A stretch of 11,155 nt of DNA from an uncultured Deinococcales bacterium (GCA_964244895.1 CAXTKV010000035.1:1-11155); one strand, 5' to 3'; shown: positions 1-11,155, numbered from the stretch's first letter. A program made the numbers and translations. The notes: generated by a model from the sequence alone, not told the origin.

Positions 1-1467
1 CGCCACAATTTCCTCGGCGGTCACGCGCTTCGCATCGAACTCCGCGACCATCCGGCCTTCGCGCATGACGATGATGCGATCACTCATGTGCATGACCTCC
101 GGTAACTCGGAGCTGACCAGCACGACCGCCAGACCCTGACTGACCAATTCCGCCATGAAGCTGTGTACGGCGGCTTTCGCGCCCACGTCGATGCCTTTGG
201 TGGGTTCGTCCAGAATGATCGCGATGGGGTTGGTGGCCAGCCATTTGCTGAGCACGACCTTCTGCTGGTTGCCGCCCGAAAGCTCAGACACGTTCTGATC
301 CAGGTGCGCGGCCCGCAACGACAGGCGCTGCGCGAGCGGCATGGCGACAGATTCTTCTTTGGGTCGGTCGAGCAGGAATCCCAACCGTCCGAGCATCGGC
401 AGCGTGATGTTGTGCAGGATGCTCATCGGTAAAATGGCGCCCGCGATCTGGCGGTCTTCGGGGACGTACACCAGGCCGTGCGCCACGGCATCGGCGGGCG
501 AGCGCACGTTGAGGGTGATGCCGCCGATGCTGACGGTTCCGCGCGCCTGCGGGTTCAAGCCGAAGATCGCCTGCATGACTTCCGAACGCCCCGCGCCGAC
601 CAGACCGTAGAAGCCCAGGATCTCGCCCTGACGGACGCTGAAGCTGATGCCATCGAACTCTGTCGGGTGCGAAAAATCCGTGGCCTCGAGCACCACGTCC
701 CCGCTGAAGGCTGCCGTTTTTGGGAAGAGGCTGCCCACGTCGCGGCCCGCCATCAATCGGATCAGGCCATCGCTCGTGGCGTCCTGAATTCGTCCCTCTC
801 CGACTTTCTCGCCGTCGCGCAGCACCACGTACCGATCCGCCAGGGCGAAGACTTCATCGAATTTGTGGGTGATCAACAAGATGGCTTTGCCTTCAGTTCG
901 CAACTGCCGCACGACGCGGTACAGGTCGTCGATCTCGGCTTTGGAAAGGGACGCCGTGGGTTCGTCCATGATCACCACGCGCGCGTCCTGCGAGAGCGCC
1001 CGCGCGATCTGCACGAGGTGCTTTTGGGCCACCGAGAGTTCCTTCAGTGGCGTCTGCGGGTCAATTTTGGCGTCAATCCGATCCAGCACGCGCTGCGCGT
1101 CCTCGAGCAAGCGCTTCCAGTCCACCAGCCCGAAACGGTTCCTGACCGGGTGATGCCCGACGAACAGATTTTCCGCGACGGAGAGTTCGTCGAACATCAC
1201 GGTTTCCTGGTGAATCGCGGTGATGCCCGCCTTCCACGCGTCCTGCGGCGTGTTGAACGTCAAGGGTGCGCCCTCGAGCAGAACGCTTCCGGTATCGGCT
1301 TTGTAAATCCCGGTCAGCATCTTCACGACCGTGCTTTTGCCCGCGCCGTTCTCGCCGATCAACGCCAGCACCTCGCCGGTGTTCAGGCCAAAACTCACGT
1401 CGTGGACGGCTCTGGTCGGGCCGAAAGATTTTCCGATGTTGTGAACGTTCAAAAAGTCGTTTGGCAT
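1..1467 (-). CDS. rhaT: Sugar (L-rhamnose-type, CUT2) ABC transporter ATP-binding protein, 3' end outside the window
   Basis: Hand translation from ATG at 1467 (missing from the ORF track because no stop lies in the window): MPNDFLNVHNIGKSFG...GENGAGKST (Walker A)...IMDEPTASLS...second ABC domain LSGGNQQKVVLSKWL...ILDEPTKGIDVGAK. Two-domain RbsA-like ATPase downstream of the RhaS-like binding protein. The symbol follows Rhizobium rhaSTPQ usage, not the E. coli symporter, and is assigned from context. Confidence 0.9.
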   Translation of the reverse strand, partial: MPNDFLNVHNIGKSFGPTRAVHDVSFGLNTGEVLALIGENGAGKSTVVKMLTGIYKADTGSVLLEGAPLTFNTPQDAWKAGITAIHQETVMFDELSVAENLFVGHHPVRNRFGLVDWKRLLEDAQRVLDRIDAKIDPQTPLKELSVAQKHLVQIARALSQDARVVIMDEPTASLSKAEIDDLYRVVRQLRTEGKAILLITHKFDEVFALADRYVVLRDGEKVGEGRIQDATSDGLIRLMAGRDVGSLFPKTAAFSGDVVLEATDFSHPTEFDGISFSVRQGEILGFYGLVGAGRSEVMQAIFGLNPQARGTVSIGGITLNVRSPADAVAHGLVYVPEDRQIAGAILPMSILHNITLPMLGRLGFLLDRPKEESVAMPLAQRLSLRAAHLDQNVSELSGGNQQKVVLSKWLATNPIAIILDEPTKGIDVGAKAAVHSFMAELVSQGLAVVLVSSELPEVMHMSDRIIVMREGRMVAEFDAKRVTAEEIVA

Positions 1468-1504
1468 TTTCGTTCTCTCGGGCGTTATTTGAGGTCTGGA
1501 TTCC

Positions 1505-1559
1505 CGAGAACACCGTCCGGGACGATGTTCTTAACTTGTCGCACTGGACGGTGTTCCCG
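1505..1559. repeat. Intergenic palindromic repeat family, copy A
   Basis: cgagaacaccgtcc (1505-1518) pairs with ggacggtgttcccg (1546-1559), 13/14. The left arm also forms its own palindrome, agaacaccgtcc-g-ggacgatgttct (1507-1531), 11/12. Confidence 0.9.
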
Positions 1560-1567
1560 TATTTTTT

Positions 1568-1618
1568 GTAGGGGCGAAGCGTGCTTCACACTGTGCGCGC
1601 TTCACACGACGCCCCCAC
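1568..1618. repeat. GTAG-tagged REP-like element
   Basis: GTAGGGGCG (1568-1576)...CGCCCCCAC (1610-1618) inverted ends, 8/9. Internal direct repeat gcgtgcttcacac (1579-1591) / gcgcgcttcacac (1595-1607). Confidence 0.6.
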
Positions 1619-1657
1619 GCGGGTTTACGTGCGTTCCCGAGGCTTAACGCCCGAGGC

Positions 1658-2662
1658 TCAGAACGCCTTGGCGAACTTATCGATGTTCGACTTGTCGAAG
1701 GTGAACGGCTCGCCCATCACGGCTTCCGTGTTGGCGTCCAGCGTGGCCATGCCCATGCGACCCATGCTGATCTTCTCGCCGGGCTTACCGGTGGCCTTGC
1801 CGGTCACGAACTGGTACGCCAGGTACACGGCGCTGTAGCCGAAGTCGATCGGGTTCCAGAGCGCGAAGGTGTCCACGGAACCGTTCTTGACGTAGCTGAT
1901 CATCTCGGACGGCAAGCCCAGACCGGAGACGAAGACCTTACCGATCAACTTCTGATCCGTCACGTACTTGGCGGCGGCGGCGATGCCGACGGTCGTGGGC
2001 GCGATGATGCCCTTCAGGTTCGGGTACTTGGTGATCAAGCCCTGCGCCTCGCGGTAGGACTTGTCGCTGGCGTCGTCACCGTAGACCACGTCAACCAGCT
2101 TCAAATCCTTGTACTTGGGGTCCTTCAGGGTTTCTTTCATGGCCGCGATCCAGTTGTTCTGGTTGGTGGCCTGCGCGGTGGCGGACAGCACCGCGATTTC
2201 GCCCTTGCCGCCGATGGTCTTGGAGATCATCTCGATCTGCTTGCGCCCGATCAATTCCGTGTTGGACGGGTTGAGATGCATCAAACGCCCGTCCTTGGCG
2301 ACGCCCGAATCCCAGGAAATCACCTTGACGCCGCGCTCGGTGGCTTTCTTCAGGGCGGGCACGAGCGCGTTCGTGTCGTTGGCGCTGATGGCGATGGCGT
2401 CCACCTTCTGCGCGACCAGGGCGTTGATCTGCTCGATCTGGCCTTCGGCGGTGGCGGTGGTCGGGCCGGTGTAGATCAGTTCCACGTCCCCGAGTTCCTT
2501 GGCGGCTTCCATTCCGCCGTCCCTTGCAGCCTCGAAGAAGCCGTTGCCGAGGCTCTTGACCAGCAGCGCGATCTTCTTCTTGCCCTGCGCTTCGCCCGTG
2601 CCGATCACGGCGAGCGCCGCCGCGCCCAACAATGCTGCACCGACCAGAATGGCTTTCTTCAT
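1658..2662 (-). CDS. rhaS: Rhamnose ABC transporter substrate-binding protein (RhaS-type periplasmic binding protein)
   Basis: True start is ATG at 2662 (MKKAILVGAALLGAAALAVIGTGEAQG, signal peptide) with SD GAGGAGG just upstream; 334 aa. Motifs LVKSLGNGFFEAA...IYTGPTTATAEGQI...AISAND...SWDSGV...GLGLPSEM...ALWNPIDFGY match the rhizobial RhaS family. This is not the E. coli AraC-type regulator RhaS. Confidence 0.9.
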   Translation of the reverse strand: MKKAILVGAALLGAAALAVIGTGEAQGKKKIALLVKSLGNGFFEAARDGGMEAAKELGDVELIYTGPTTATAEGQIEQINALVAQKVDAIAISANDTNALVPALKKATERGVKVISWDSGVAKDGRLMHLNPSNTELIGRKQIEMISKTIGGKGEIAVLSATAQATNQNNWIAAMKETLKDPKYKDLKLVDVVYGDDASDKSYREAQGLITKYPNLKGIIAPTTVGIAAAAKYVTDQKLIGKVFVSGLGLPSEMISYVKNGSVDTFALWNPIDFGYSAVYLAYQFVTGKATGKPGEKISMGRMGMATLDANTEAVMGEPFTFDKSNIDKFAKAF

Positions 2663-2690
2663 GCGTTCCTCCTCGCAGTGCTGACCGAAC

Positions 2691-2709
2691 AGCGCCGTCC
2701 CGGACGATG
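2691..2709. repeat. Intergenic palindromic repeat family, copy B (degenerate half copy)
   Basis: agcgccgtcccggacgatg resembles the family arm aacaccgtccNggacgatg; it lies in the putative rhaS 5' UTR. Confidence 0.55.
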
Positions 2710-2727
2710 CCGGGCCAAAGCAGAACA

Positions 2728-2743
2728 AAAGTCGAACGACTTT
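2728..2743. promoter_or_regulatory. Candidate operator palindrome upstream of rhaS
   Basis: AAAGTCG-AA-CGACTTT, a perfect 7-2-7 inverted repeat between the putative promoter and the rhaS start. Confidence 0.35.
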
Positions 2744-2781
2744 CGCACATGAATCTGTTGGTTTGTCACACTGTACGAACA

Positions 2782-2811
2782 AAGATAGCGCAAGCTTCAA
2801 TCGTCCGTCAA
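2782..2811 (-). promoter_or_regulatory. Putative sigma70-type promoter of the rha ABC operon
   Basis: The minus strand reads TTGACG (2811-2806)-18 nt-TATCTT (2787-2782) in an AT-richer patch. AAGCTTCA occurs both within the spacer and just upstream (TGAAGCTTCA palindrome, 2816-2825). Confidence 0.5.
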
Positions 2812-2836
2812 CTGGTGAAGCTTCATCAATCGAGAG

Positions 2837-2896
2837 GCAGCCGTGAGCCGCAAGCCGCAAGGGTTTAGCTTGCGGCTTGCGGCTAATGGCTTGCGG
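2837..2896. repeat. Inverted heptamer tandem array forming a perfect 16-bp hairpin
   Basis: gcagccg|tgagccg|caagccg|caag - ggtttag - cttgcgg|cttgcgg|ctaatgg|cttgcgg. agccgcaagccgcaag (2846-2861) pairs perfectly with cttgcggcttgcggct (2869-2884). Confidence 0.85.
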
Positions 2897-2899
2897 CCT

Positions 2900-2942
2900 A
2901 CCATCCCGGACGCGATCTCGAGAATGCGTCCTGAACGGTGTC
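2900..2942. repeat. Intergenic palindromic repeat family, copy C
   Basis: accatcccggacgcgatctcgagaatgcgtcctgaacggtgtc aligns with copy D and shares the ctcgagaatgcgt centre. Confidence 0.8.
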
Positions 2943-2950
2943 CATGAACG

Positions 2951-2956
2951 TATACT
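2951..2956 (+). promoter_or_regulatory. -10 box of a probable leaderless promoter (pxpA)
   Basis: TATACT-cgaggc-ATG: hexamer 6 nt before the start codon. Confidence 0.65.
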
Positions 2957-2962
2957 CGAGGC

Positions 2963-3739
2963 ATGAGAATAGATCTGAACGCGGACGCGGGGGAATCTTT
3001 CGGCGCGTACAGCATCGGCGACGATGCGGCCCTGATGCCGGTCATCACCAGCGTCAACCTGGCGTGCGGATTTCACGCGGGCGATCCGATGGTCATGCGC
3101 GATTCCGTCAAGCTGGCCATGCAGCACGGCGTGGAAATTGGCGCGCACGTCGGCTACCCGGATCGGGTGGGCTTCGGACGGCGCGTGATCGACGCCACCC
3201 CAGACGAGGTTTACGCCGATACCCTCTACCAGATCGGCGCGCTGCGGGCGTTCATCCGCGTGGCCTCCGGCGATCCGCGCGGCGGGCGGATGCAGCACGT
3301 CAAACCGCACGGCGCGCTCTACAACCACATGATCCATCACGAACCCACCGCGCGAGCCGTCGCCAGGGCCGTCCACGATTTCTCCGAGACGCTGCCCGTG
3401 GTCGTGCTGGCGGGTTCCCGGTGCGCGGAATGGGTCAAATCGGAGGGCGCGAGCGTGATCGAAGAACTCTTCGCGGATCGCGGCTACGCGCCCGACGGCA
3501 CGCTGCTGCCGCGCTCGAAACCCGGCGCGCTGCTCACCGACCCGGAAGCAGTCGCGGCTCGAGTCGTGAAGATGGTGCTCGAGGGGAAAGTCTCGACTTC
3601 CGGCGGCGAGATTGCGGTTCGCGGTCAGACCGTCTGCTTCCACGGCGACACGCCCGGCGCGGCCAGTATTGCCCGTGCTGCGCGGCGCGCGCTCGAGGCG
3701 GCGGGCGTTGAGATCAAAGCCATGCGCGCCAAAGAATGA
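2963..3739 (+). CDS. pxpA: 5-oxoprolinase subunit A (LamB/YcsF family)
   Basis: MRIDLNADAGESFG...NLACGFHAGDP...GAHVGYPDRVGFGRR...HVKPHGALYN...FADRGY...TVCFHGDTPGA are the canonical LamB/YcsF motifs; 258 aa. Confidence 0.95.
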   Translation: MRIDLNADAGESFGAYSIGDDAALMPVITSVNLACGFHAGDPMVMRDSVKLAMQHGVEIGAHVGYPDRVGFGRRVIDATPDEVYADTLYQIGALRAFIRVASGDPRGGRMQHVKPHGALYNHMIHHEPTARAVARAVHDFSETLPVVVLAGSRCAEWVKSEGASVIEELFADRGYAPDGTLLPRSKPGALLTDPEAVAARVVKMVLEGKVSTSGGEIAVRGQTVCFHGDTPGAASIARAARRALEAAGVEIKAMRAKE

Positions 3740-3748
3740 TGCGTTTGG

Positions 3749-3767
3749 CTCGAGTCTGAATCTCGAG
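3749..3767. terminator. Short hairpin between convergent genes (possible weak terminator)
   Basis: ctcgag-tctgaat-ctcgag, two XhoI palindromes in the 30-bp gap between two convergent stop codons; no clear U-tract. Confidence 0.25.
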
Positions 3768-3769
3768 TT

Positions 3770-4534
3770 CTACAGACTTGCGGGATTGGTGGTTGTGTTT
3801 GCTGCGGGCGTCGCTGTGGCGTGCGCCGTGAATGCACCGAAGAACTCGCGCCAGTACCACCCAGTAGCGGTATTGAGGACGAGTCCACCCAATGCTGTTA
3901 AAAAAATGGCGGTACGCGCTTCGCTGGGCATTGGCAATGCGGAAAGGCTAATAAACATGAGATATAAAAACATGATGACATTACATACCAAAGCCACCAT
4001 GTACCAGTTTCGCAGCGTTTTGCTCAACGCCCCGAATGCGTATGTGACGCGCCGCATCTCAGTCCAGAGGGTGGCATCAGTAATCCAGGCTTTATACCAA
4101 CCCATTACTGCGTATCCGACCCAAAAAACAATTTCGATGATGACGTAAAATACGACCATTGGGAGTTCTATGCCTGTAGTTAACCCTCGAATCAACAGGA
4201 TGACGACCAGAAGGACTCCAAAGATAGCAATTATGACCTGAAAGGCTCTCATCCAGCGTCCTAGTGTCTCAGTGAGTTTTTGAACACGTTGGGTCTGATC
4301 TGTGCGCTCCTCGAGCAAGATCGAACTAATTCGGGCGACCCATTCTGCCCACCAAGTTGTCAGGATGTATCCGAAAACAGCGCTCACGAGGCGGCCCAAA
4401 ATGACCCCTACTGAATTCTGATTCGGCTGCGGGAACAAAATGCTTAACAACGACAACGCGGGTAGTACGAATCGGCTGATGTTCAACCACAAGACAAGGT
4501 TGCGTGAGACGTTTTCCAGATTGCTCGAATTCAT
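3770..4534 (-). CDS. Hypothetical multi-pass membrane protein (~6 TM) with apparent 3-fold internal repeat
   Basis: 254-aa ORF filling the gap between genes, with about six hydrophobic segments and a TACGAT -10-like box 6 nt before the ATG. GC is markedly lower (sampled 60-mers 38-48%) than in neighbouring genes. Confidence 0.8.
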   Translation of the reverse strand: MNSSNLENVSRNLVLWLNISRFVLPALSLLSILFPQPNQNSVGVILGRLVSAVFGYILTTWWAEWVARISSILLEERTDQTQRVQKLTETLGRWMRAFQVIIAIFGVLLVVILLIRGLTTGIELPMVVFYVIIEIVFWVGYAVMGWYKAWITDATLWTEMRRVTYAFGALSKTLRNWYMVALVCNVIMFLYLMFISLSALPMPSEARTAIFLTALGGLVLNTATGWYWREFFGAFTAHATATPAANTTTNPASL

Positions 4535-4540
4535 CTTGCC

Positions 4541-4546
4541 ATCGTA
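4541..4546 (-). promoter_or_regulatory. -10 box of a probable leaderless promoter (membrane protein gene)
   Basis: Minus strand reads TACGAT-ggcaag-ATG, 6-nt spacer. Confidence 0.6.
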
Positions 4547-4600
4547 CTCGACCGCAAGGATCGAGGATGTGCAGGCACGATGGCGTTCAACTCAAATCTC

Positions 4601-4652
4601 GAGAACATCGTCCCGGACGCAAACTCGAGAATGCGTGTGGCACGGTGTTCTC
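4601..4652. repeat. Intergenic palindromic repeat family, copy D
   Basis: gagaacatcgtcccggacgcaaactcgagaatgcgtgtggcacggtgttctc; terminal gagaaca/tgttctc inverted repeat with CTCGAG in the centre. Confidence 0.9.
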
Positions 4653-4685
4653 TTGAAGATTCGCGTCTCGGCCCTTGAGCGAGAT

Positions 4686-5576
4686 TCAGGTCGCTGATTT
4701 CGTCGTCAGCCCAATCAATGTTGCCTTTGCGTTCCGCATGTGAAAATCCTTGTAGAACGCTTCCACACCATCAGGCTCGAGGTTCAGGCTTCTGATGGCA
4801 TCCTCGAAATTCCAACCGATGCGCTCGGGCAAATCTTCGAGATCCATCCAGTGTTCCGGCAGATTTCCCGCGCCAATTGTGCGCCTCGCGTGTGCCTCGA
4901 GCGTGGCGTAATACGAGAGGTTGCGCGAGATCAAACCGGGATCGCTCGTACCGCCGTGGCAGGGCAGAACCACGCTCGGGTTCAACGCTTCCAGGTTCCG
5001 CAACGTCCGGAGCAGCACGGGCAGATCGGTGGGATTCTTGGCGTAAGGCCACGGGTGTTCGGCGGCGTCGGCGGCCAGCAGCGCGCGCAATTCCGGAATC
5101 CACACGACCGCGTGATCCTCGCTGTGACCGGGCGCTGGAATCAATTCCAGCGTCAAATCCCCGCCGTGAATCGTGAAGCGATCCGTGAACGTCAGCGTGG
5201 GCGGCACGAGGCGCACGTTCGCGTATCTCTGGTCTGTGGCCTGAGCATTCCGCAATTTCTCGAGCGTTTCAGGGCTTCTGGCGATCCCAACTGATTTCTC
5301 GTGACCGATGATCGGTGCCATACCGTCAAACGTGGTGTTCCCCCAGACGTGATCGCTGTGCTGGTGCGTGTTCACGACCAGCAGCGCTCGAGATTCAAGG
5401 TCTGGTTGGATCGCGGCGAGCATCTGCGCGGCGTCTTCCGGCGTGATCATCGTGTCGATCACGACCACGAACCGTTGTGTGGTCACGACGAAACAATCCA
5501 CGTCGTCGGAATGGAACAACTGGATTCTGTCGTCCCAATCGCTGTGACCTTCGGTCACGGTTTTCTCGAGATCCAT
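4686..5576 (-). CDS. MBL-fold metallo-hydrolase (glyoxalase II/cyclase-like)
   Basis: VVIDT, NTHQHSDHVWGN (HxHxDH), APGHSEDH, AADA and LPCHG metal-binding motifs; 296 aa. Substrate unknown. Confidence 0.9.
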   Translation of the reverse strand: MDLEKTVTEGHSDWDDRIQLFHSDDVDCFVVTTQRFVVVIDTMITPEDAAQMLAAIQPDLESRALLVVNTHQHSDHVWGNTTFDGMAPIIGHEKSVGIARSPETLEKLRNAQATDQRYANVRLVPPTLTFTDRFTIHGGDLTLELIPAPGHSEDHAVVWIPELRALLAADAAEHPWPYAKNPTDLPVLLRTLRNLEALNPSVVLPCHGGTSDPGLISRNLSYYATLEAHARRTIGAGNLPEHWMDLEDLPERIGWNFEDAIRSLNLEPDGVEAFYKDFHMRNAKATLIGLTTKSAT

Positions 5577-5642
5577 ACCGATCAGTATTCATCCCCCGCC
5601 TGAGTTTCGCCTCAGCCCGTGCGTCCCTGTCGCCGCTTTTGT

Positions 5643-5702
5643 CCTCCCCTGCCTCGGTAGGGGAGGTGTCATCCTCGCGGTTTTCGAGGATGACGGAGGG
5701 GT
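5643..5702. repeat. Double-hairpin intergenic element (CCTCCCC...GGGGAGGTGTC...GACGGAGGGG type)
   Basis: Stem 1: cctcccctgcc/ggtaggggagg (5643-5666, one G-T). Stem 2: gtcatcctcg/cgaggatgac (5668-5694, perfect 10 bp). Followed by ggagggg. Confidence 0.75.
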
Positions 5703-5711
5703 CGCCTTCAA

Positions 5712-5759
5712 GAGCACCGTCCAGCACGCAATTTCAGGAATGCGTGCTGGACGGTGTTC
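5712..5759. repeat. Intergenic palindromic repeat family, copy E
   Basis: gagcaccgtccagcacgca-atttcaggaa-tgcgtgctggacggtgttc: 19-bp stem (one G-T) with a 10-nt loop, 2 bp from the hemW stop codon. Confidence 0.92.
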
Positions 5760-5761
5760 CC

Positions 5762-6898
5762 TTACAGAAATTCCGACACGACCGCGTTCAGCACCCAAAT
5801 CCCGTCCGGCGTGGCGCGTACCGTTTCGCCGTCCGTCTCGAGCAAGCCTTGTGTAATCAACGAATCGAAGGCGCGCGCGAACCTGGCGCGCACGTCCACG
5901 CCGGAACGATTCGAGAGTTCCGTCAGGTTCACGCCGCTCTTGAGCCGCAATCCAGAAAAGAGCGCGTCCGTGACGAACTCCTCGCCGCTGACAGGTTCCA
6001 GCGATCCGTCCTGAAGGCTGGCGCGCGCACCCTCGAGCCAGGATGGTAACGGCGGGTTCTTGCGGCGCTCGGAGACGGCGTGCTCTGACAGTGAAGGGTA
6101 ATGTCCGGTCGCGCTCGGGCCGAGTCCGAACCAGAAGCGGTTCTCCCAGTACGCGATGTTGTGCCGCGATTCGCGCCCCGGCCTGGCGTGGTTGCTGACC
6201 TCGTAACGCTCCAAACCGTACTCGAGCAGCACGCTTTCGGCCAGTTCGAGCGCGGTTTCCTCGTCCTCCTCGCGCACTTTGACGCCCTGGCGCGCGAAGG
6301 GCGTGCCGTCCTCGATGGTCAGGGTGTAGGCGCTGATGTGTTCCAACCCGACGCTGGCCAGGGCGCGCAGGTCGCGTTCCACGTCCTGTCCGGGCACGGC
6401 GGTGATCAGGTCGGCGCTGACGCGGAATCCCGCCTCGAGCAACATCGCCAGCGCCGTGTGCGCCTGCTTTGAATCGTGGGTGCGCCCCAGGAATTTCAGC
6501 ACGTCGTCTTGCGTGCTTTGCACGCCCAGGCTGGCGCGGTCGAAGCCCAACTCGCGCCAGAGTCGAGCGCGGGCTTTCGTGACCGTGCCGGGGTTGACTT
6601 CCAGGGTCGCCTCGCCGCCATGCGCAAAGTCTGGAACCCAGCCGAAGGCGCTCTTGATGGTGGTCACGAAGTCCGTGATCTCGCGGTCGCGCAGAAAGGA
6701 GGGCGTGCCGCCGCCGACGTAGATGGTCGTCAGGTGTGATGGGAACTCGTCCGCAAGCTCCCGTGCCTCTCGCTCGAGTTCCGCCAGGTACGCGTCGACC
6801 AGCCCGGAGCGCCGCTCCAGGACGTGAAAATCGCAGTACGGACAGATCGTCGGGCAGAACGGCACGTGAGCGTAGAGGTGGCGGATCGGGTCGGGCAT
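5762..6898 (-). CDS. hemW: Radical SAM heme chaperone HemW (HemN-like)
   Basis: Start probably ATG at 6898 (MPDPIRHLYAHVPFCPTICPYCDF, CxxxCxxC), then YVGGGTPS, LEVNPGT, YEVSNHA and HNIAYW (the HNxxYW motif typical of HemW); 378 aa. The ORF-track extension to 7921 is antisense to the next gene. Confidence 0.92.
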   Translation of the reverse strand: MPDPIRHLYAHVPFCPTICPYCDFHVLERRSGLVDAYLAELEREARELADEFPSHLTTIYVGGGTPSFLRDREITDFVTTIKSAFGWVPDFAHGGEATLEVNPGTVTKARARLWRELGFDRASLGVQSTQDDVLKFLGRTHDSKQAHTALAMLLEAGFRVSADLITAVPGQDVERDLRALASVGLEHISAYTLTIEDGTPFARQGVKVREEDEETALELAESVLLEYGLERYEVSNHARPGRESRHNIAYWENRFWFGLGPSATGHYPSLSEHAVSERRKNPPLPSWLEGARASLQDGSLEPVSGEEFVTDALFSGLRLKSGVNLTELSNRSGVDVRARFARAFDSLITQGLLETDGETVRATPDGIWVLNAVVSEFL

Positions 6899-6931
6899 CG
6901 CGGGGTTCACGGTACATGAATCCTGCGCCTT

Positions 6932-6987
6932 CAGGAACACCGTCCAGCACGATGTTCGTGTATTTACGTCCAGGACGGTGTTTCCTG
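6932..6987. repeat. Intergenic palindromic repeat family, copy F
   Basis: caggaacaccgtccagcacgatgttcgtgtatttacgtccaggacggtgtttcctg, between divergent hemW and the dehydrogenase gene. Confidence 0.9.
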
Positions 6988-7027
6988 GCGTGCGGCGCTG
7001 GAATGTTGGCGGTGGAATACTGGGCGC

Positions 7028-8098
7028 ATGGAAGACCTGACCATCCGCGCACCGCAACTTCAGGCCGCCGTTCAGATCATCGTGGAACGGGGCGGCAGCA
7101 GCCCGCTCGAGGCGGAGCGCGTGGCCTCGAACCTGATCGAGGCGAACCTGACCGGGCACGATTCGCACGGTGTGGGCATGATCCCGCGCTACGTGGCGGC
7201 GCTCCAGGATGGCGGCTTGCGGGTCAACCAGCACGTCAGCCTGGCGCTGGACGCGGGCGCGATGCTCCGACTGGACGGTCACGCGGGCTACGGCCAGGTG
7301 ATCGGCCTGGAAGCCATGCAGCTCGGCATCGAACGGGCGAGGGCGCAGGGCGTGTGCGCCCTCGGGATCGCGGGTTCGCACCACCTCGGGCGGATCGGGC
7401 ACTGGGCGGAACAGTGCGCGGCGCAGGGGCTGATCTCGATGCACTTCGTCAACGTCGTCTCGAGGCCGGTCGTGGCGCCGTGGGGCGGGCGCGATGCGCG
7501 GCTCGGCACCAACCCGGTCTGCGTCGGCATTCCCAGGGCGGATCGACCGCCGATCGTTCTGGATTTTGCCACCAGCCGGATCGCGCAGGGCAAGACCCGC
7601 GTGGCGCGCAACCGCGGCGAGGACGTGCCGCCGGGCGTGCTCATAGACGACCTCGGCGATCCGACCACCGATCCCAAATACGCCGTGGTTCCGCCGTTCG
7701 GCGCGATCCTGCCCTTCGGCGAGCACAAGGGCTACGGCCTGGCGTTGATCTGCGAGTTGCTCGGCGGCGCGCTGACCGGAGGCCAGACGCAGCACGGGCT
7801 GGACGGCGGGCAAAAGCGCATCCTGAACGGGATGTTCTCGGTGATCATTGACCCGAACGCGATGGGCACGGCGGCGCACCTGACGGCGGAAACGGAGGCC
7901 TTCGCCGCCTGGGTGCAGCAATCGCCGCCATCCGGGACGGAACCCGTGCAGTTGCCCGGCGATCCCGAACGCGCCCGTAAACGCGAGCGGCTCGAGCGGG
8001 GCATTGCGGTGGATGCGATCACCTGGGCGGAGATCCTTCAGGCTGCCGAATCGCTCGGCCTCGAGCCTGATGTGGTGTCTCGCGCAGCGGGTGCTTAA
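7028..8098 (+). CDS. Malate/L-lactate/ureidoglycolate dehydrogenase, Ldh_2 family (YbiC/HcxB-like)
   Basis: EANLTGHDSHGVGMIPRY, SHHLGRIGHWAE, GTNPVC, LDFATS, FGEHKGYGLA and LPGDPER are Ldh_2 family motifs; 356 aa. AATACT lies 6 nt before the ATG. Confidence 0.9.
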   Translation: MEDLTIRAPQLQAAVQIIVERGGSSPLEAERVASNLIEANLTGHDSHGVGMIPRYVAALQDGGLRVNQHVSLALDAGAMLRLDGHAGYGQVIGLEAMQLGIERARAQGVCALGIAGSHHLGRIGHWAEQCAAQGLISMHFVNVVSRPVVAPWGGRDARLGTNPVCVGIPRADRPPIVLDFATSRIAQGKTRVARNRGEDVPPGVLIDDLGDPTTDPKYAVVPPFGAILPFGEHKGYGLALICELLGGALTGGQTQHGLDGGQKRILNGMFSVIIDPNAMGTAAHLTAETEAFAAWVQQSPPSGTEPVQLPGDPERARKRERLERGIAVDAITWAEILQAAESLGLEPDVVSRAAGA

Positions 8099-8159
8099 GG
8101 CATTTCATTCTGCTCGAGTACGTGTGGGGATCAACCCTCGGGCTTCGGGAATTTTTCGT

Positions 8160-8181
8160 GAGAACACCGTTCCAGACGATG
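8160..8181. repeat. Intergenic palindromic repeat family, copy G (half copy)
   Basis: gagaacaccgttccagacgatg matches the left arm of copy A; no intact right arm. Confidence 0.75.
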
Positions 8182-8242
8182 CGCGCCGCCATGTGCGAAA
8201 TGAACGCGAGATCGGCTTCGGCGCGCCCTAAACTGCTCACAT

Positions 8243-8707
8243 ATGCGTCTTCTTCGCTCGTTGACAGTGCTGTCCATTTGCGCCCTGACCCTGCTCGCGT
8301 GCGCGCCCGCCGCCACCACGAACGCCCGTCCCGCTTCGGCGCTCGAACGGATCGCCATCAAGGGCAGCGACGCCTGGACGATGGTGGCCTCCAGGGCCGA
8401 CAAATCGGAGGATCGCAGCTTCAAAATTGAGCTTCTGGAAGACCCGCAGGTGACGCGCACCGGGATTTACATCGCCGAGGCGAGCGCGGGCAAGTTCGAC
8501 GCGCTGGTGTTCTTCTTCCCGAAGGACGACACCATCGCCGTGCGGGTCGATCTGGATCGCAACAAGGACCCGCAGGTGATCGTCTGCGTCTTCCCCCAAA
8601 CCGTCGCGAGCGGCGTGCAGTTCACGGGCAGCGCGTATTTCGGGTTGTTGAGCGGACTGGAAAACGCGAGCGGTTACGGTCGGTGCGCGCTCAACAAGAA
8701 CCAGTAG
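8243..8707 (+). CDS. Hypothetical lipoprotein
   Basis: MRLLRSLTVLSICALTLLA-C has a signal peptide II with lipobox LLAC; 154 aa; host-like GC3; TAAACT 8 nt upstream of the ATG. Confidence 0.8.
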   Translation: MRLLRSLTVLSICALTLLACAPAATTNARPASALERIAIKGSDAWTMVASRADKSEDRSFKIELLEDPQVTRTGIYIAEASAGKFDALVFFFPKDDTIAVRVDLDRNKDPQVIVCVFPQTVASGVQFTGSAYFGLLSGLENASGYGRCALNKNQ

Positions 8708-8741
8708 TCGCTCGACGCTTCAAAGGCGAGTTCTGTAGCTC

Positions 8742-8794
8742 GAGAACACCGTCTGGCGCGCATTCTCGGGATGATCGCGCCAGACGATCTTCTC
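8742..8794. repeat. Intergenic palindromic repeat family, copy H (reverse orientation)
   Basis: gagaacaccgtctggcgcg-cattctcgggatgat-cgcgccagacgatcttctc, 17/19 stem. The loop carries cattctcg, the reverse complement of the cgagaatg centre of copies C and D. Confidence 0.88.
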
Positions 8795-8837
8795 CGGGTC
8801 GGTCTCGAGCATCCACGGCTCGCGGAACCCCTCGCGG

Positions 8838-8843
8838 TATCCT
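8838..8843 (+). promoter_or_regulatory. -10 box of a probable leaderless promoter (purB)
   Basis: TATCCT-gagccc-GTG, 6-nt spacer, no clear SD sequence. Confidence 0.6.
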
Positions 8844-8849
8844 GAGCCC

Positions 8850-10154
8850 GTGATTGACCGTTATTCCACTCCTGAAATGCGCGCCCTCTGGAGCGAGGCC
8901 AACCGTTACCGCGTCTGGCTCGAGGTCGAACTGGCCGCCGTGGACGCCTGGGTCAGCCTGGGCGAGGTTCCAGCCGATGCCGCCGCCGACCTGCGCGAGC
9001 GTTCCGTGGCCGACCCCCTGGACGACGCCTTCGCGGAGCGCGTCGCGGAAATCGAGGCCGTCACGCGCCACGACATCGTGGCCTTCACGACCGCGCTGTC
9101 CGAGCGCTACGGCCAGAACGCGCGCTTCGTGCACAAGGGTTTGACCAGCACGGACGTGGTGGACACCGCGCAGAACATCGTGCTGCGCCGCGCGTTGGGG
9201 ATCGTGGCGGCGGACGCCGTGCGCCTGCGCGATGTCTGCCGCGATCAGGCGGTGCGCTACAAGCACACGCCCTGCATCGGGCGCACCCACGGCATTCACG
9301 CGGAACCCATGACCTTCGGCCTGAAATTCCTGAACTGGATGTCGGCCTTGAACCGTGACCTGGAACGATTGGATCGCTCCACGCGCGCGATTTCGGTGGT
9401 GATGCTCTCGGGCAGCGTCGGGACGTTCGCGCACGTCAGCCCGAAAATAGAGGGCATCGTGGCCGAAACGCTGTCCCTCGAGATCGATCCGGTCACGAAC
9501 CAGACCATCGCGCGGGATCGGCACGCGGAAGTGCTTTCGGCGCTGGCCATTCTGGGCACGAGCCTGGAAAAGATTTCCATCGAAATCCGCCACCTGCAGC
9601 GCTCAGAGGTGCGCGAGGCGATGGAGCCCTTCAGCCTCGGTCAGAAGGGCTCATCTTCGATGCCGCACAAGAAAAACCCGATCGGCACGGAGAACATCGC
9701 GGGCCTGGCGCGGATCTTGCGCGGCAACCTTCAGGCGGGCCTGGAGAACGTGGCGCTCTGGCACGAGCGCGACATCTCGCATTCCAGCGTGGAGCGCATC
9801 ATCTTGCCCGACAGCACGACCCTGGCCAGTTACGCCACGCGGCGTCTGGCGGGCATCCTGGAAAAACTGGTCGTGTTCCCGGAACGCATGATGACCAACC
9901 TGGACGGGCTGGGCGGACTGGTGTACTCGCAGCGCGTGCTGGGCTTGCTGCTCGATCACGGCCTGATGCGCGAGGCCGCCTACGAGATCGTGCAACGAAA
10001 CGCATTGCAGGCCTGGGAATCCAGTACATCCTTCCGAGATCTCTTGGAGCGCGACCCGGAAAACCCCTTGAAGGGCGCGAGCCTGGACGCAGCCTTCGAT
10101 CTGGGCTGGTACCTGCGCGAGGTGGACACGATCTACGCGCGGTTCGGGCTGTGA
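8850..10154 (+). CDS. purB: Adenylosuccinate lyase
   Basis: MIDRYSTPEM...TRHDIVAF...HKGLTSTD...GRTHGIHAEP...QKGSSSMPHKKNP (fumarate-lyase signature)...WHERDISHSSVER; GTG start; 434 aa. Confidence 0.97.
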   Translation: MIDRYSTPEMRALWSEANRYRVWLEVELAAVDAWVSLGEVPADAAADLRERSVADPLDDAFAERVAEIEAVTRHDIVAFTTALSERYGQNARFVHKGLTSTDVVDTAQNIVLRRALGIVAADAVRLRDVCRDQAVRYKHTPCIGRTHGIHAEPMTFGLKFLNWMSALNRDLERLDRSTRAISVVMLSGSVGTFAHVSPKIEGIVAETLSLEIDPVTNQTIARDRHAEVLSALAILGTSLEKISIEIRHLQRSEVREAMEPFSLGQKGSSSMPHKKNPIGTENIAGLARILRGNLQAGLENVALWHERDISHSSVERIILPDSTTLASYATRRLAGILEKLVVFPERMMTNLDGLGGLVYSQRVLGLLLDHGLMREAAYEIVQRNALQAWESSTSFRDLLERDPENPLKGASLDAAFDLGWYLREVDTIYARFGL

Positions 10155-10512
10155 GCCCGCAAGCCGTCGTGCAGCGCCAGCTCGAAGCGTACAACGCCCG
10201 CGACATCGACGCGCTGATGGAAACCTACGCCGACGACGTTCAGGTCTATGAGCATCCAGCCACGCTGTTGGCGAGCGGCGCGGCGCAACTCCGCGAGCGC
10301 CAGAGCGTGCGCTTGCAGGAACCCAACCTGCGCGCGCGCACCTGGTCAACCGCATCGTGACGGGCGACCTGGTGATCGATCACGAGATCGTGACCCGCAC
10401 CTTCCCTGAGGGTAGTGGACGGCTCGAGATGGTCGCCATGTACGAGGTGGACGCCGCAAAGATCGCTCGGGCGTGGTTCGTGTTCGGCGCCAAAACCCTC
10501 GATGCGGATTGA
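10151..10512 (+). pseudogene. SnoaL/NTF2-like protein gene, frameshifted in a (GC)5 tract
   Basis: The GTG start overlaps the purB stop (GTGA). VVQRQLEAYNARDIDALMETYADD...EPNL continues in another frame as HLVNRIVTGDLVIDHEIVTRTFPEGSGRLEMVAMYEVDAAKIARAWFVFG...TGA(10512). Removing 2 nt from gcgcgcgcgc (10330-10339) gives an intact 119-aa ORF. Confidence 0.85.
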
Positions 10513-10609
10513 AGCTCAATTTTCTCGGACTCGAGCAACCCGCGTCAGCCTCGGAATAGCTTAGGGATTCATTCGGTCAGGGAAATAGACGATGCAAAAA
10601 GGAGACACC

Positions 10610-11155
10610 GTGTCAATGAAAGCGTACCTGGACAATATTCAGGCCAAAACCGGCAAGACGGTCGCCGATTTTCGGGCGCTCGCCGCCGAAAAGGGTCTGG
10701 TCAAAAGTGGCGAGATCGTCGCGTGGTTGAAAGCGGATTTCGGTCTGGGGCACGGGCACGCGCAGGCCATCGCCGCGAACCTGGCGCACCCAAATTTTGG
10801 CAAGACCAGCCAGGAAGACCGCTTCAGCGCGCTCTTTGCGGGCAACAAAGCGCACTGGCGCGAGGCTTTCGACGCGTTGATCGCGCAATTGAAAGCGTTC
10901 GGGTCGGACGTGGACGTATCGGCCAACCAGACTTACGTCAACGTCAACCGGGGCAAGAAGAAATTCGCGATCCTGCAAGCGTCCAAAGACCGATTCGATA
11001 TCGGCATCAAACTCAAAGGATTTGTGGCGACCGAACGGCTCGAGATCGCCGGATCGTGGAACGCGATGGTCACGCACCGGGTGCGCATTAATGATGCCGC
11101 GCAAATGGATGCTGAAGTGCTGGCCTGGCTGCGGCGCGCCTACGACGCGGCCTGA
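10610..11155 (+). CDS. DUF4287 + DUF5655-like domain protein
   Basis: Likely start GTG at 10610 after SD AAGGAG (an in-frame ATG at 10592 is the alternative). N-terminus AYLDNIQAKTGK...WLKADFGLGHGHAQAI resembles DUF4287; C-terminus TYVNV...KKKFA...THRVRI...EVLAWLRRAYDAA resembles DUF5655. Assignment is from recalled family patterns. Confidence 0.8.
   Translation: MSMKAYLDNIQAKTGKTVADFRALAAEKGLVKSGEIVAWLKADFGLGHGHAQAIAANLAHPNFGKTSQEDRFSALFAGNKAHWREAFDALIAQLKAFGSDVDVSANQTYVNVNRGKKKFAILQASKDRFDIGIKLKGFVATERLEIAGSWNAMVTHRVRINDAAQMDAEVLAWLRRAYDAA

Follow-up and report, generated by a model that had tools for sequence, protein, structure and literature searches.

An 11,155-nucleotide stretch of DNA from an uncultured Deinococcales bacterium (GCA_964244895.1, CAXTKV010000035.1:1-11155; hereafter the window) is crowded with the palindromic hexamer CTCGAG. 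We find that a force acts on this exact hexamer at the level of DNA, on both strands, at all positions and against all mutation types. Our favoured reading, to which we assign a probability of about 0.4, is that CTCGAG is a highly iterated palindrome (HIP) maintained at the DNA level by a force to which codon and amino-acid choice give way, possibly as a Chi-like stop signal of the AddAB helicase-nuclease. A motif search of the window returns exactly 35 CTCGAG sites, against a mean of 4.53 and a maximum of 11 in dinucleotide shuffles (0 of 200 reached 35) and 3.7 expected from base composition at 62.2% GC. An earlier note on the window had counted at least 35 sites by hand, with about 4 expected at roughly 63% GC, many encoding Leu-Glu, ten lying between genes, and off-frame sites at 3558, 5387 and 7459. 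Every one of these sites is recovered at its position, and gene calls divide them, in keeping with the note, into 22 in-frame CTC GAG (Leu-Glu), 10 intergenic and 3 off-frame sites (Table 1). The description of the word as a HIP1-like highly iterated palindrome is also borne out, since the excess is genome-wide, present in every frame and between genes, family-wide and conserved among relatives.

The source genome of the window (G000; 5.12 Mb in 328 contigs, the longest 66 kb, 91% complete) contains 21,883 copies of CTCGAG, or one per 234 bases (4,270 per Mb, 4.3/kb). CTCGAG is the commonest hexamer in G000, with an observed-to-expected ratio (O/E) of 9.1 under an order-1 and 9.8 under an order-2 Markov null (runner-up palindrome 4.25, on 25 sites), and it is the top word under a maximal-order Markov null, with a z of 110. 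Other GC-rich palindromes are mostly strongly avoided (O/E 0.01 for CGGCCG, 0.02-0.04 for CCCGGG), and CGATCG is under-represented at 0.32-0.59. The sites are spaced almost randomly, with a coefficient of variation of gap length of 0.96 and a longest gap of 2,509 nt. The excess amounts to 12-15-fold across 1-kb segments of 45-70% GC, and a region resembling an integrated element carries 6.2 sites/kb. Density drops from 4.4 to 2.6/kb over quintiles of codon score, a measure that is partly circular.

Comparison across Deinococcota shows that the excess is shared by the whole family of G000 and is graded or missing elsewhere. The family consists of 19 genomes (G000 and 18 relatives), 6 of which belong to a set of 251 Deinococcota genomes, and all 19 carry 4.3-6.8 CTCGAG/kb. 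Within the larger set, genus g7 has at most 0.27/kb, g9 lies near 1/kb, g13, g18 and g19 reach 1.4-3.5/kb, and family f2 spans 0.3-2.6/kb. Family f3 includes G253 at 7.0/kb and G196 at 3.6/kb, and also G197, of the same genus as G253, at 0.3/kb. Sampled O/E values are 3.5-4.4 in a g9 genome, 6-13 in a g13 genome, 1.3-1.6 in G197 and 0.2-0.4 in G195 and G243, and Deinococcus sequences have 0-1 CTCGAG in 8-21 kb. The most economical reading is that the excess is an old Deinococcota trait that grew stronger in G000's family and in G253 and disappeared on several occasions. A literature search, mostly of open-access papers, found no published report of a CTCGAG excess in Deinococcota.

Three side observations belong to this survey. 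The reversed word GAGCTC is all but missing from the family, at 0-161 copies in each of the 18 relatives of G000, and four genomes of the family (L092 of G006, L082, L091, L096) have a D12 methylase together with an open reading frame (ORF) weakly matching SacI endonuclease (E 0.007). Among long loci from outside Deinococcota, L189 of Fervidobacterium thailandense has the highest CTCGAG O/E, 4.0 in 21 kb (20 sites; GAGCTC 6). Viral contigs with three close CTCGAG sites were uninformative: the densest among those listed are also rich in other TCGA words, often in GAGCTC, and have scarcely any protein similarity to G000.

In favour of a bias of codons, dipeptides or repeat elements, with no force on the DNA word itself, in-frame CTC GAG makes up 11,039 of the 15,002 coding sites of G000 and 22 of the 35 sites in the window. 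Gaps containing the core of intergenic repeats resembling repetitive extragenic palindromes (REP-like) hold 8.6 CTCGAG/kb versus 5.8/kb in gaps without it, the words of these repeats head the 7-mer and 8-mer over-representation lists of G000, and in the GC-rich genus g9 GAGCTC is about as common as CTCGAG. We held the proteins fixed and drew on genome codon usage, separately for each reading frame, in 4,190 of the 4,555 genes called by a simple codon model. Observed counts exceed this null in all three frames (11,039 against 2,742, or 4.0-fold; 778 against 49, or 15.9-fold; 3,185 against 434, or 7.3-fold), whereas the control word GAGCTC gives 0.28, 0.28 and 0.09. In gaps of 20-300 nt CTCGAG stands at 7.9/kb, 11 times the order-2 null of these gaps, and gaps lacking the REP-like core keep the excess. 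The excess is found throughout, under Markov and codon nulls alike, and the objection that codon or dicodon usage might explain it fails. The same density is seen at 47% GC (5.2/kb in the relative G008), and two Trueperaceae sequences of 40-42% GC have an O/E of 8-11. The proteins themselves carry the mark of the word: Leu-Glu is the most over-represented dipeptide in G000 (18,606 against 8,789 expected, 59% of them spelled CTC GAG), with an O/E of 2.1-2.2 in motif-rich genomes (2.2 in G006 and G008) and 1.9 in G196. Motif-free relatives have a Leu-Glu O/E of 1.05-1.14, and 63 loci outside the phylum give 1.06. Together with the doubled Leu-Glu pairs, an off-frame excess of 7-16-fold and an intergenic excess of 11-fold refute such a bias for G000's family, and we give it next to no weight.

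Turnover of sites among close relatives shows that the word is held in place. G000 itself has no congener, and four 20-kb pieces of G008 were aligned to G017 (93.7% identical, 56 kb), G016 and G018, with changes polarised by parsimony on three terminal branches. Of 294 CTCGAG sites, 266 are retained in G017, compared with 71.9% for hexamers at large. Matched background rates predict 92.5 silent and intergenic losses of CTCGAG, and 37 are observed (ratio 0.40); 14 frequent control words have loss ratios of 0.55-1.33. Losses fall below expectation in all six mutation classes, which is what a force acting on the word as a whole should produce. Losses that change an amino acid number 16 against 18.9 expected, and the flanks of conserved sites are not protected in the four-relative alignment. 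One-step writing of the motif was considered, as 13 of 59 discordant sites differ at three or more bases compared with a background of 6.5% (p 1e-4). It was rejected because the per-site rate of about 2.2% matches the roughly 1.8% found for any hexamer, so that imports of diverged alleles explain these sites.

The spectrum of losses also bears on very short patch (VSP) repair, in which a cytosine-5 (C5) methylase paired with Vsr would convert T:G mismatches to CTCGAG. According to the survey of PMC4752239, C5 methylases specific for CTCGAG occur with Vsr genes in Nocardia and Rhodopseudomonas, and some C5 methylase match is present in all 18 relatives of G000. These C5 enzymes do not form an orthologous set within the family, however, and G000, at 91% completeness, has no C5 methylase match. 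TTCGAG and CTTGAG are not depleted, and losses by C>T are no better protected than the rest (25 of 57 expected, compared with 12 of 35.5 for other types). This flat loss spectrum largely refutes VSP repair, which we regard as very unlikely.

The earlier note had tentatively attributed the word to a system driven by methylation and repair or by recombination. The methylation part is not supported in this lineage, and the recombination part, though unproven, is better supported by the co-occurrence with addAB described below. In a methylation-linked HIP (Elhai's ratchet), N6-methyladenine (m6A) at CTCGAG or TCGA would direct repair or recombination and thereby build sites, and in G000's family the methylase would be lost, unassembled or of an unrecognised class. 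Elsewhere in the phylum the idea fares better: orphan m6A cTcgAg methylases that are 94-99.5% active are reported in three cultured relatives, Marinithermus hydrothermalis, Meiothermus ruber and M. chliarophilus (Blow et al. 2016, PMC4752239). As far as the available text of that source goes, M. silvanus has no entry for a CTCGAG enzyme, and the main text brings up CTCGAG for Nocardia origin clusters only, not as a genome-wide excess in Deinococcota. Alternate cyanobacterial HIPs are likewise described as accompanying cognate methylases (PMC4390886).

A search of five motif-rich genomes yielded two candidate TCGA/CTCGAG methylase families which, judged by family, probably correspond to the orphan cTcgAg enzymes of the cultured relatives. 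The M.TaqI-like family (E 2.5e-126 to M.TaqI) is present in 33 of the 251 genomes (30/30 in g9, 2/2 in g21, 1/1 in g11) and keeps the same neighbouring gene in 18 of 19 loci from other genomes; no such enzyme was matched on plasmids. A second family of 550-residue Eco57I/TaqI_C proteins, which we take to resemble PaeR7I/XhoI methylases, is present in 15 of 251. Searches found no member of either candidate family in the 6 family genomes, and none in G253 and G196, which have the highest densities outside the family. Methylation therefore accompanies CTCGAG in parts of the phylum and does not track the strength of the word. Where the TaqI-like enzyme is fixed, CTCGAG reaches a low density of about 1/kb, and sites are still protected in relatives in which no common enzyme was found. 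At the M.TaqI-like loci L328-L346 (g9, g21) the position is conserved, beside what are presumably a class II aminotransferase-like and a gyrB-like gene, and an endonuclease-like neighbour stands in 7 of 20 loci.

Among the methylases of G000 itself, one resembles BREX PglX and one type I HsdM. Two are restriction-modification-paired, namely a beta-class enzyme next to an unassigned ORF and a D12 enzyme next to a NotI-family endonuclease, and another lies on an integrated element. A six-frame search with profiles built from the relatives' enzymes added no further methylase, and the orphan CTCGAG methyltransferase that the earlier note had suggested looking for was not found in G000 by either family or six-frame profile searches. 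The XhoI-family endonuclease PF04555 was unmatched in G000, and control genomes likewise gave no match. Four Pfam methylase families were surveyed over the 19 genomes, and 30 loci per search were clustered. The enzymes are many but patchy, with no orthologue common to the whole family among the clustered loci, and the widest cluster, a Dam-like D12 enzyme in 7 genomes, is missing from G000. In the single-contig genome G006 the only Eco57I-domain proteins are one of 1111 residues and one that is type I-like; two D12 enzymes and a C5 enzyme on an island accompany them, and no N6_N4 enzyme was found. Weighing the enzymes of the cultured relatives against this record, we consider a methylation ratchet unlikely.

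A role for AddAB is ranked first because, among the genes tested, only addAB was lost where the word was lost. AddB was profiled over the 251 genomes and AddA was tested in 30 chosen genomes, with a weak AddB match in G242 (f3) set aside. G000 carries addB (G000:C128, ADDB_N E 9e-11) beside an addA cut by the contig end; PF12705 (PDDEXK_1) gave no match in G000, and addB was located by motif scan. AddB matches occur in 5/6 genomes of G000's family within the set, 67/69 of f2, 12/12 of f4, 60/61 of f5 and 5/103 of f3 (one of them weak). Across all 19 family genomes, 18 have AddB and the remaining one has AddA. At least 0.6 CTCGAG/kb is reached by 145 of the 148 AddB-positive genomes, a crude threshold, since GAGCTC occurs in similar numbers in many of the g9 and f2 genomes that exceed it. 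Among the 103 genomes without an AddB match, G008 and G237 carry AddA, and 100 of the 101 others have at most 0.46 CTCGAG/kb. AddA is likewise present in G195, G243 and G205, and it was not found in G197, G192, G074 and nine other f3 genomes tested, where there are weak UvrD-like matches only. The contrast is seen within a single genus, where G253 has both AddA and AddB and the motif-poor G197 has neither, though it keeps ComEC. This control gene is present in 28 of the 30 genomes, motif-rich and motif-free alike. Deinococcus is described as being without addAB (PMC11143384).

The AddB proteins of Deinococcota align to B. subtilis AddB (E 1e-10, profile match) and are shorter, at about 800-860 residues versus 1166. 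The glutamine equivalent to Q42 is invariant in 20 aligned AddB sequences, a tyrosine stands at the position of W73, and an E-x-K-R stretch is present. We take E129 to be the latch residue of AddB. D41, Q42, T44, F68, R70, W73 and F210 are among the tested Chi-recognition residues of the B. subtilis protein (PMC3321194). In the addB locus L227:5523-8111 and its relatives, the C-terminal nuclease part looks degenerate or divergent, yet the terminal cysteines are invariant.

If AddAB reads the word, it would chew back broken or incoming DNA until meeting CTCGAG. In cells that hold several genome copies and take up DNA, resection of an end would spare an allele with CTCGAG and degrade one lacking it, which would then be recopied from a homologue. 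The result would be a conversion bias, or plain selection, toward CTCGAG anywhere in the genome, and a palindromic word would work whichever side it is approached from. On this view the orphan TCGA/CTCGAG methylases of other Deinococcota would be secondary to the word, kept to shield thousands of sites from restriction. A further reason for ranking this reading first comes from Thermus thermophilus, where AddAB is reported to destroy incoming DNA (PMC9751324, PMC11143384), with knockouts transforming 30- to 1000-fold better (PMC9751324), in a polyploid cell of 4-5 genome copies (PMC6469415). Under such conditions selection or conversion would favour a stop signal. The fullest version of the idea holds that CTCGAG is the Chi site of Deinococcota AddAB, the first palindromic one, and that in multi-copy transformable cells it spreads by winning conversion at resected ends, rewriting proteomes. 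We put this version forward as doubtful; if true, highly iterated palindromes could arise from recombination drive without a methylase.

Several observations weigh against AddAB as the reader. G195 and G243 keep AddA and AddB yet have a CTCGAG O/E of 0.2-0.4, with no replacement word standing out in 256 kb, and G205 keeps both proteins at an O/E of 1.5-1.7. Conversely, G074 (g9) has 1.1 CTCGAG/kb, the usual g9 density, with neither AddA nor AddB found, which possibly reflects a recent loss of addAB. Motif and addAB have been lost together in only about three independent cases, and two of these concern small genomes (2.1-2.3 Mb) from which many other genes have also gone. Changes in the N-terminal pocket of AddB do not follow density (clade-level rho -0.05), and G241 shares L39P/P40G with the motif-poor G205 yet has 1.3 CTCGAG/kb. 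Pocket residues had been tried as a predictor of density, and a suggestive signal under a circular definition vanished under leave-clade-out. Flanks and near-matches of the word show no strand polarity beyond background skew (all 32 |z| at most 2.1 in 106 contigs, oriented by a weak GC skew). A search for an extended signal that depends on direction, or for a different skewed Chi candidate, gave only a generic G/T skew. Single-step silent gains of CTCGAG among the aligned relatives are not visibly raised, at 3 against 3.0 expected with a wide interval, in an analysis where fast regains escape parsimony. The greater number of visible losses than gains fits either slightly harmful variants that are not yet purged or fast regain invisible to parsimony, and these turnover data do not separate selection from conversion. 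Loss of AddAB in the subclade of G008 was rejected as the cause of the imbalance, as G016 and G017 have AddB and G008 has AddA. Known Chi sites are described as neither palindromic nor methylated, and in Synechococcus 7002 deletion of addAB reportedly left the transformation benefit of HIP1 in place (both in the available text of bioRxiv 10.1101/2024.09.10.611283).

Some of these points are met by a dimeric protein that binds double-stranded CTCGAG, either as a nucleoid organiser or as a receptor in uptake or recombination. Selection or an uptake drive would keep the sites, and AddAB would be a bystander that disappeared from the same lineages. A perfect palindrome is well suited to reading by a dimer, and the missing strand polarity, the even spread of sites and the reduced loss for every mutation type agree with such a reader. 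Such a protein would give a simple account of the AddAB-positive, motif-free G195, G243 and G205, and it fits the palindrome and the exceptions better than AddAB does. HIP1 itself has been tied to chromosome structure and uptake (PMC5861425, PMC13756078). Against this, our analysis identified no candidate protein, and the presence of ComEC, which G197 also carries, fails to separate motif-rich from motif-free genomes. We judge a dimeric reader somewhat unlikely.

Set beside known systems, CTCGAG shares four of the five testable features of the HIP class, the one that differs being a cognate methylase, which was not found in G000 or its family with specificity judged by enzyme family. It is not HIP1 itself, because the word is neither GCGATCGC nor one with a GATC/CGATCG core, and its host belongs to Deinococcota rather than cyanobacteria. 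Like HIP1 (GCGATCGC) and the alternate HIPs as described in PMC4390886 and PMC5861425, it is a short perfect palindrome and the most over-represented word, present in and between genes and conserved among relatives. CTCGAG is the denser, at 4,300-6,800 per Mb versus about 500-2,500 (PMC4390886), with HIP1 given as at most one per 350 nt (PMC5861425). It further differs from cyanobacterial HIPs in sequence and phylum, in having no cognate methylase found in the densest lineage, and in visibly doubling a dipeptide. With the Chi sites of AddAB and RecBCD (B. subtilis AddAB, PDB 3U44/4CEH; PMC3321194) it shares a short over-represented word, an AddAB host with a recognisable Chi-scanning AddB domain, and absence from most genomes without addAB. 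Unlike described Chi sites it is palindromic, lacks strand bias, is in far stronger excess and is absent from three AddAB-positive genomes; its putative Chi role here is read from sequence. The orphan methylases M.Mhy14884I, M.Mru1279II and M.Mch9957IV have the same target in the same phylum, with no cognate endonuclease listed in the available text of PMC4752239. Their candidate families in our set are patchy, of two distinct kinds, and were not found in G000's family. The uptake sequences of Neisseria and Pasteurellaceae are non-palindromic words of 9-12 bp that occur genome-wide and can bend protein sequences. CTCGAG resembles them as a genome-wide word that bends proteins in a family carrying ComEC, and differs in that the presence of ComEC does not follow the motif.

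HIP1, which PMC5861425 describes as confined to cyanobacteria, has gone unexplained for thirty years, and CTCGAG offers an independent and denser case. Natural on/off contrasts are available in G253 versus G197 within one genus, G195 and G243 versus G196, and G205 versus its congeners. The excess extends to the culturable and genetically tractable Thermus and Meiothermus, for which there are addAB knockouts and single-molecule real-time (SMRT) methylomes listing CTCGAG methylases. Together, these contrasts and hosts make explanations by methylase, recombination and DNA binding separable by experiment. The AddAB reading, if true, would give a type of repeat previously known from cyanobacteria a cause that can be tested. 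A DNA-level word that doubles a dipeptide across the proteome matters for models of codon and protein evolution, and CTCGAG density offers a binning signature for G000's family.

The gene content of the window is ordinary, with parts of a sugar ABC system, pxpA, hemW, a dehydrogenase and purB, the closest relatives of purB being Deinococcus, Deinococcota or Trueperaceae sequences. The CTCGAG sites are listed in Table 1, where the Leu-Glu labels at 4310 and 10423 are provisional because the ORF at 3770-4534 has no NCBIfam or Pfam match and that at 10357-10512 is short.

Table 1. Location and coding context of the CTCGAG sites of the window.
Position	Class	Context
685..690	Leu-Glu	sugar ABC ATPase gene (1-1467, minus)
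1102..1107	Leu-Glu	sugar ABC ATPase gene (1-1467, minus)
1273..1278	Leu-Glu	sugar ABC ATPase gene (1-1467, minus)
2917..2922	intergenic	within REP-like repeat copy
2955..2960	intergenic	shortly upstream of pxpA
3558..3563	off-frame	pxpA, GCT CGA GTC = Ala-Arg-Val
3578..3583	Leu-Glu	pxpA
3692..3697	Leu-Glu	pxpA
3749..3754	intergenic	
3762..3767	intergenic	
4310..4315	Leu-Glu (provisional)	ORF 3770-4534, minus, without family assignment
4598..4603	intergenic	at REP-like repeat copy
4624..4629	intergenic	within REP-like repeat copy
4776..4781	Leu-Glu	metallo-hydrolase-fold gene (4686-5576, minus)
4896..4901	Leu-Glu	metallo-hydrolase-fold gene (4686-5576, minus)
5259..5264	Leu-Glu	metallo-hydrolase-fold gene (4686-5576, minus)
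5387..5392	off-frame	metallo-hydrolase-fold gene (4686-5576, minus), TCT CGA GCG = Ser-Arg-Ala on minus strand
5565..5570	Leu-Glu	metallo-hydrolase-fold gene (4686-5576, minus)
5837..5842	Leu-Glu	hemW (5762-6895, minus)
6032..6037	Leu-Glu	hemW (5762-6895, minus)
6221..6226	Leu-Glu	hemW (5762-6895, minus)
6434..6439	Leu-Glu	hemW (5762-6895, minus)
6773..6778	Leu-Glu	hemW (5762-6895, minus)
7106..7111	Leu-Glu	malate/lactate/ureidoglycolate dehydrogenase gene (7028-8098)
7459..7464	off-frame	malate/lactate/ureidoglycolate dehydrogenase gene (7028-8098), GTC TCG AGG = Val-Ser-Arg
7991..7996	Leu-Glu	malate/lactate/ureidoglycolate dehydrogenase gene (7028-8098)
8060..8065	Leu-Glu	malate/lactate/ureidoglycolate dehydrogenase gene (7028-8098)
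8113..8118	intergenic	
8739..8744	intergenic	at REP-like repeat copy
8804..8809	intergenic	upstream of purB
8919..8924	Leu-Glu	purB
9477..9482	Leu-Glu	purB
10423..10428	Leu-Glu (provisional)	short ORF 10357-10512
10530..10535	intergenic	
11039..11044	Leu-Glu	DUF4287/DUF5655 gene

The ORF at 3770-4534 (minus strand) encodes 254 residues, is hydrophobic-looking and atypical in codon use, was not called by the codon model, and has pairs of CTCGAG sites and a repeat copy at its flanks. At 10151-10512 there are two short neighbouring ORFs, the first of which matches the first half of a SnoaL-like domain; the pair is therefore probably a single frameshifted or mis-assembled gene. The REP-like palindromic repeats, which have a ACACCGTCC-type core, lie between genes at 1501-1558, 2892-2952, 4596-4659, 5707-5768, 6928-6985, 8155-8181 and 8739-8772.

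Two further features of G000 lie outside the window. At L009 (G000:C6:29480-33046) a NotI-family endonuclease adjoins a D12 methylase. The near-absence of CGGCCG from the genome (30 sites) suggests that the pair has this specificity, which we take to be EagI-like. The region G000:C139:8305-14325 is presumably a BREX-type gene row (BrxB-, BrxC- and PglX-like); its PglX-type methylase domain was identified by domain search, and the row ends at the contig edge.

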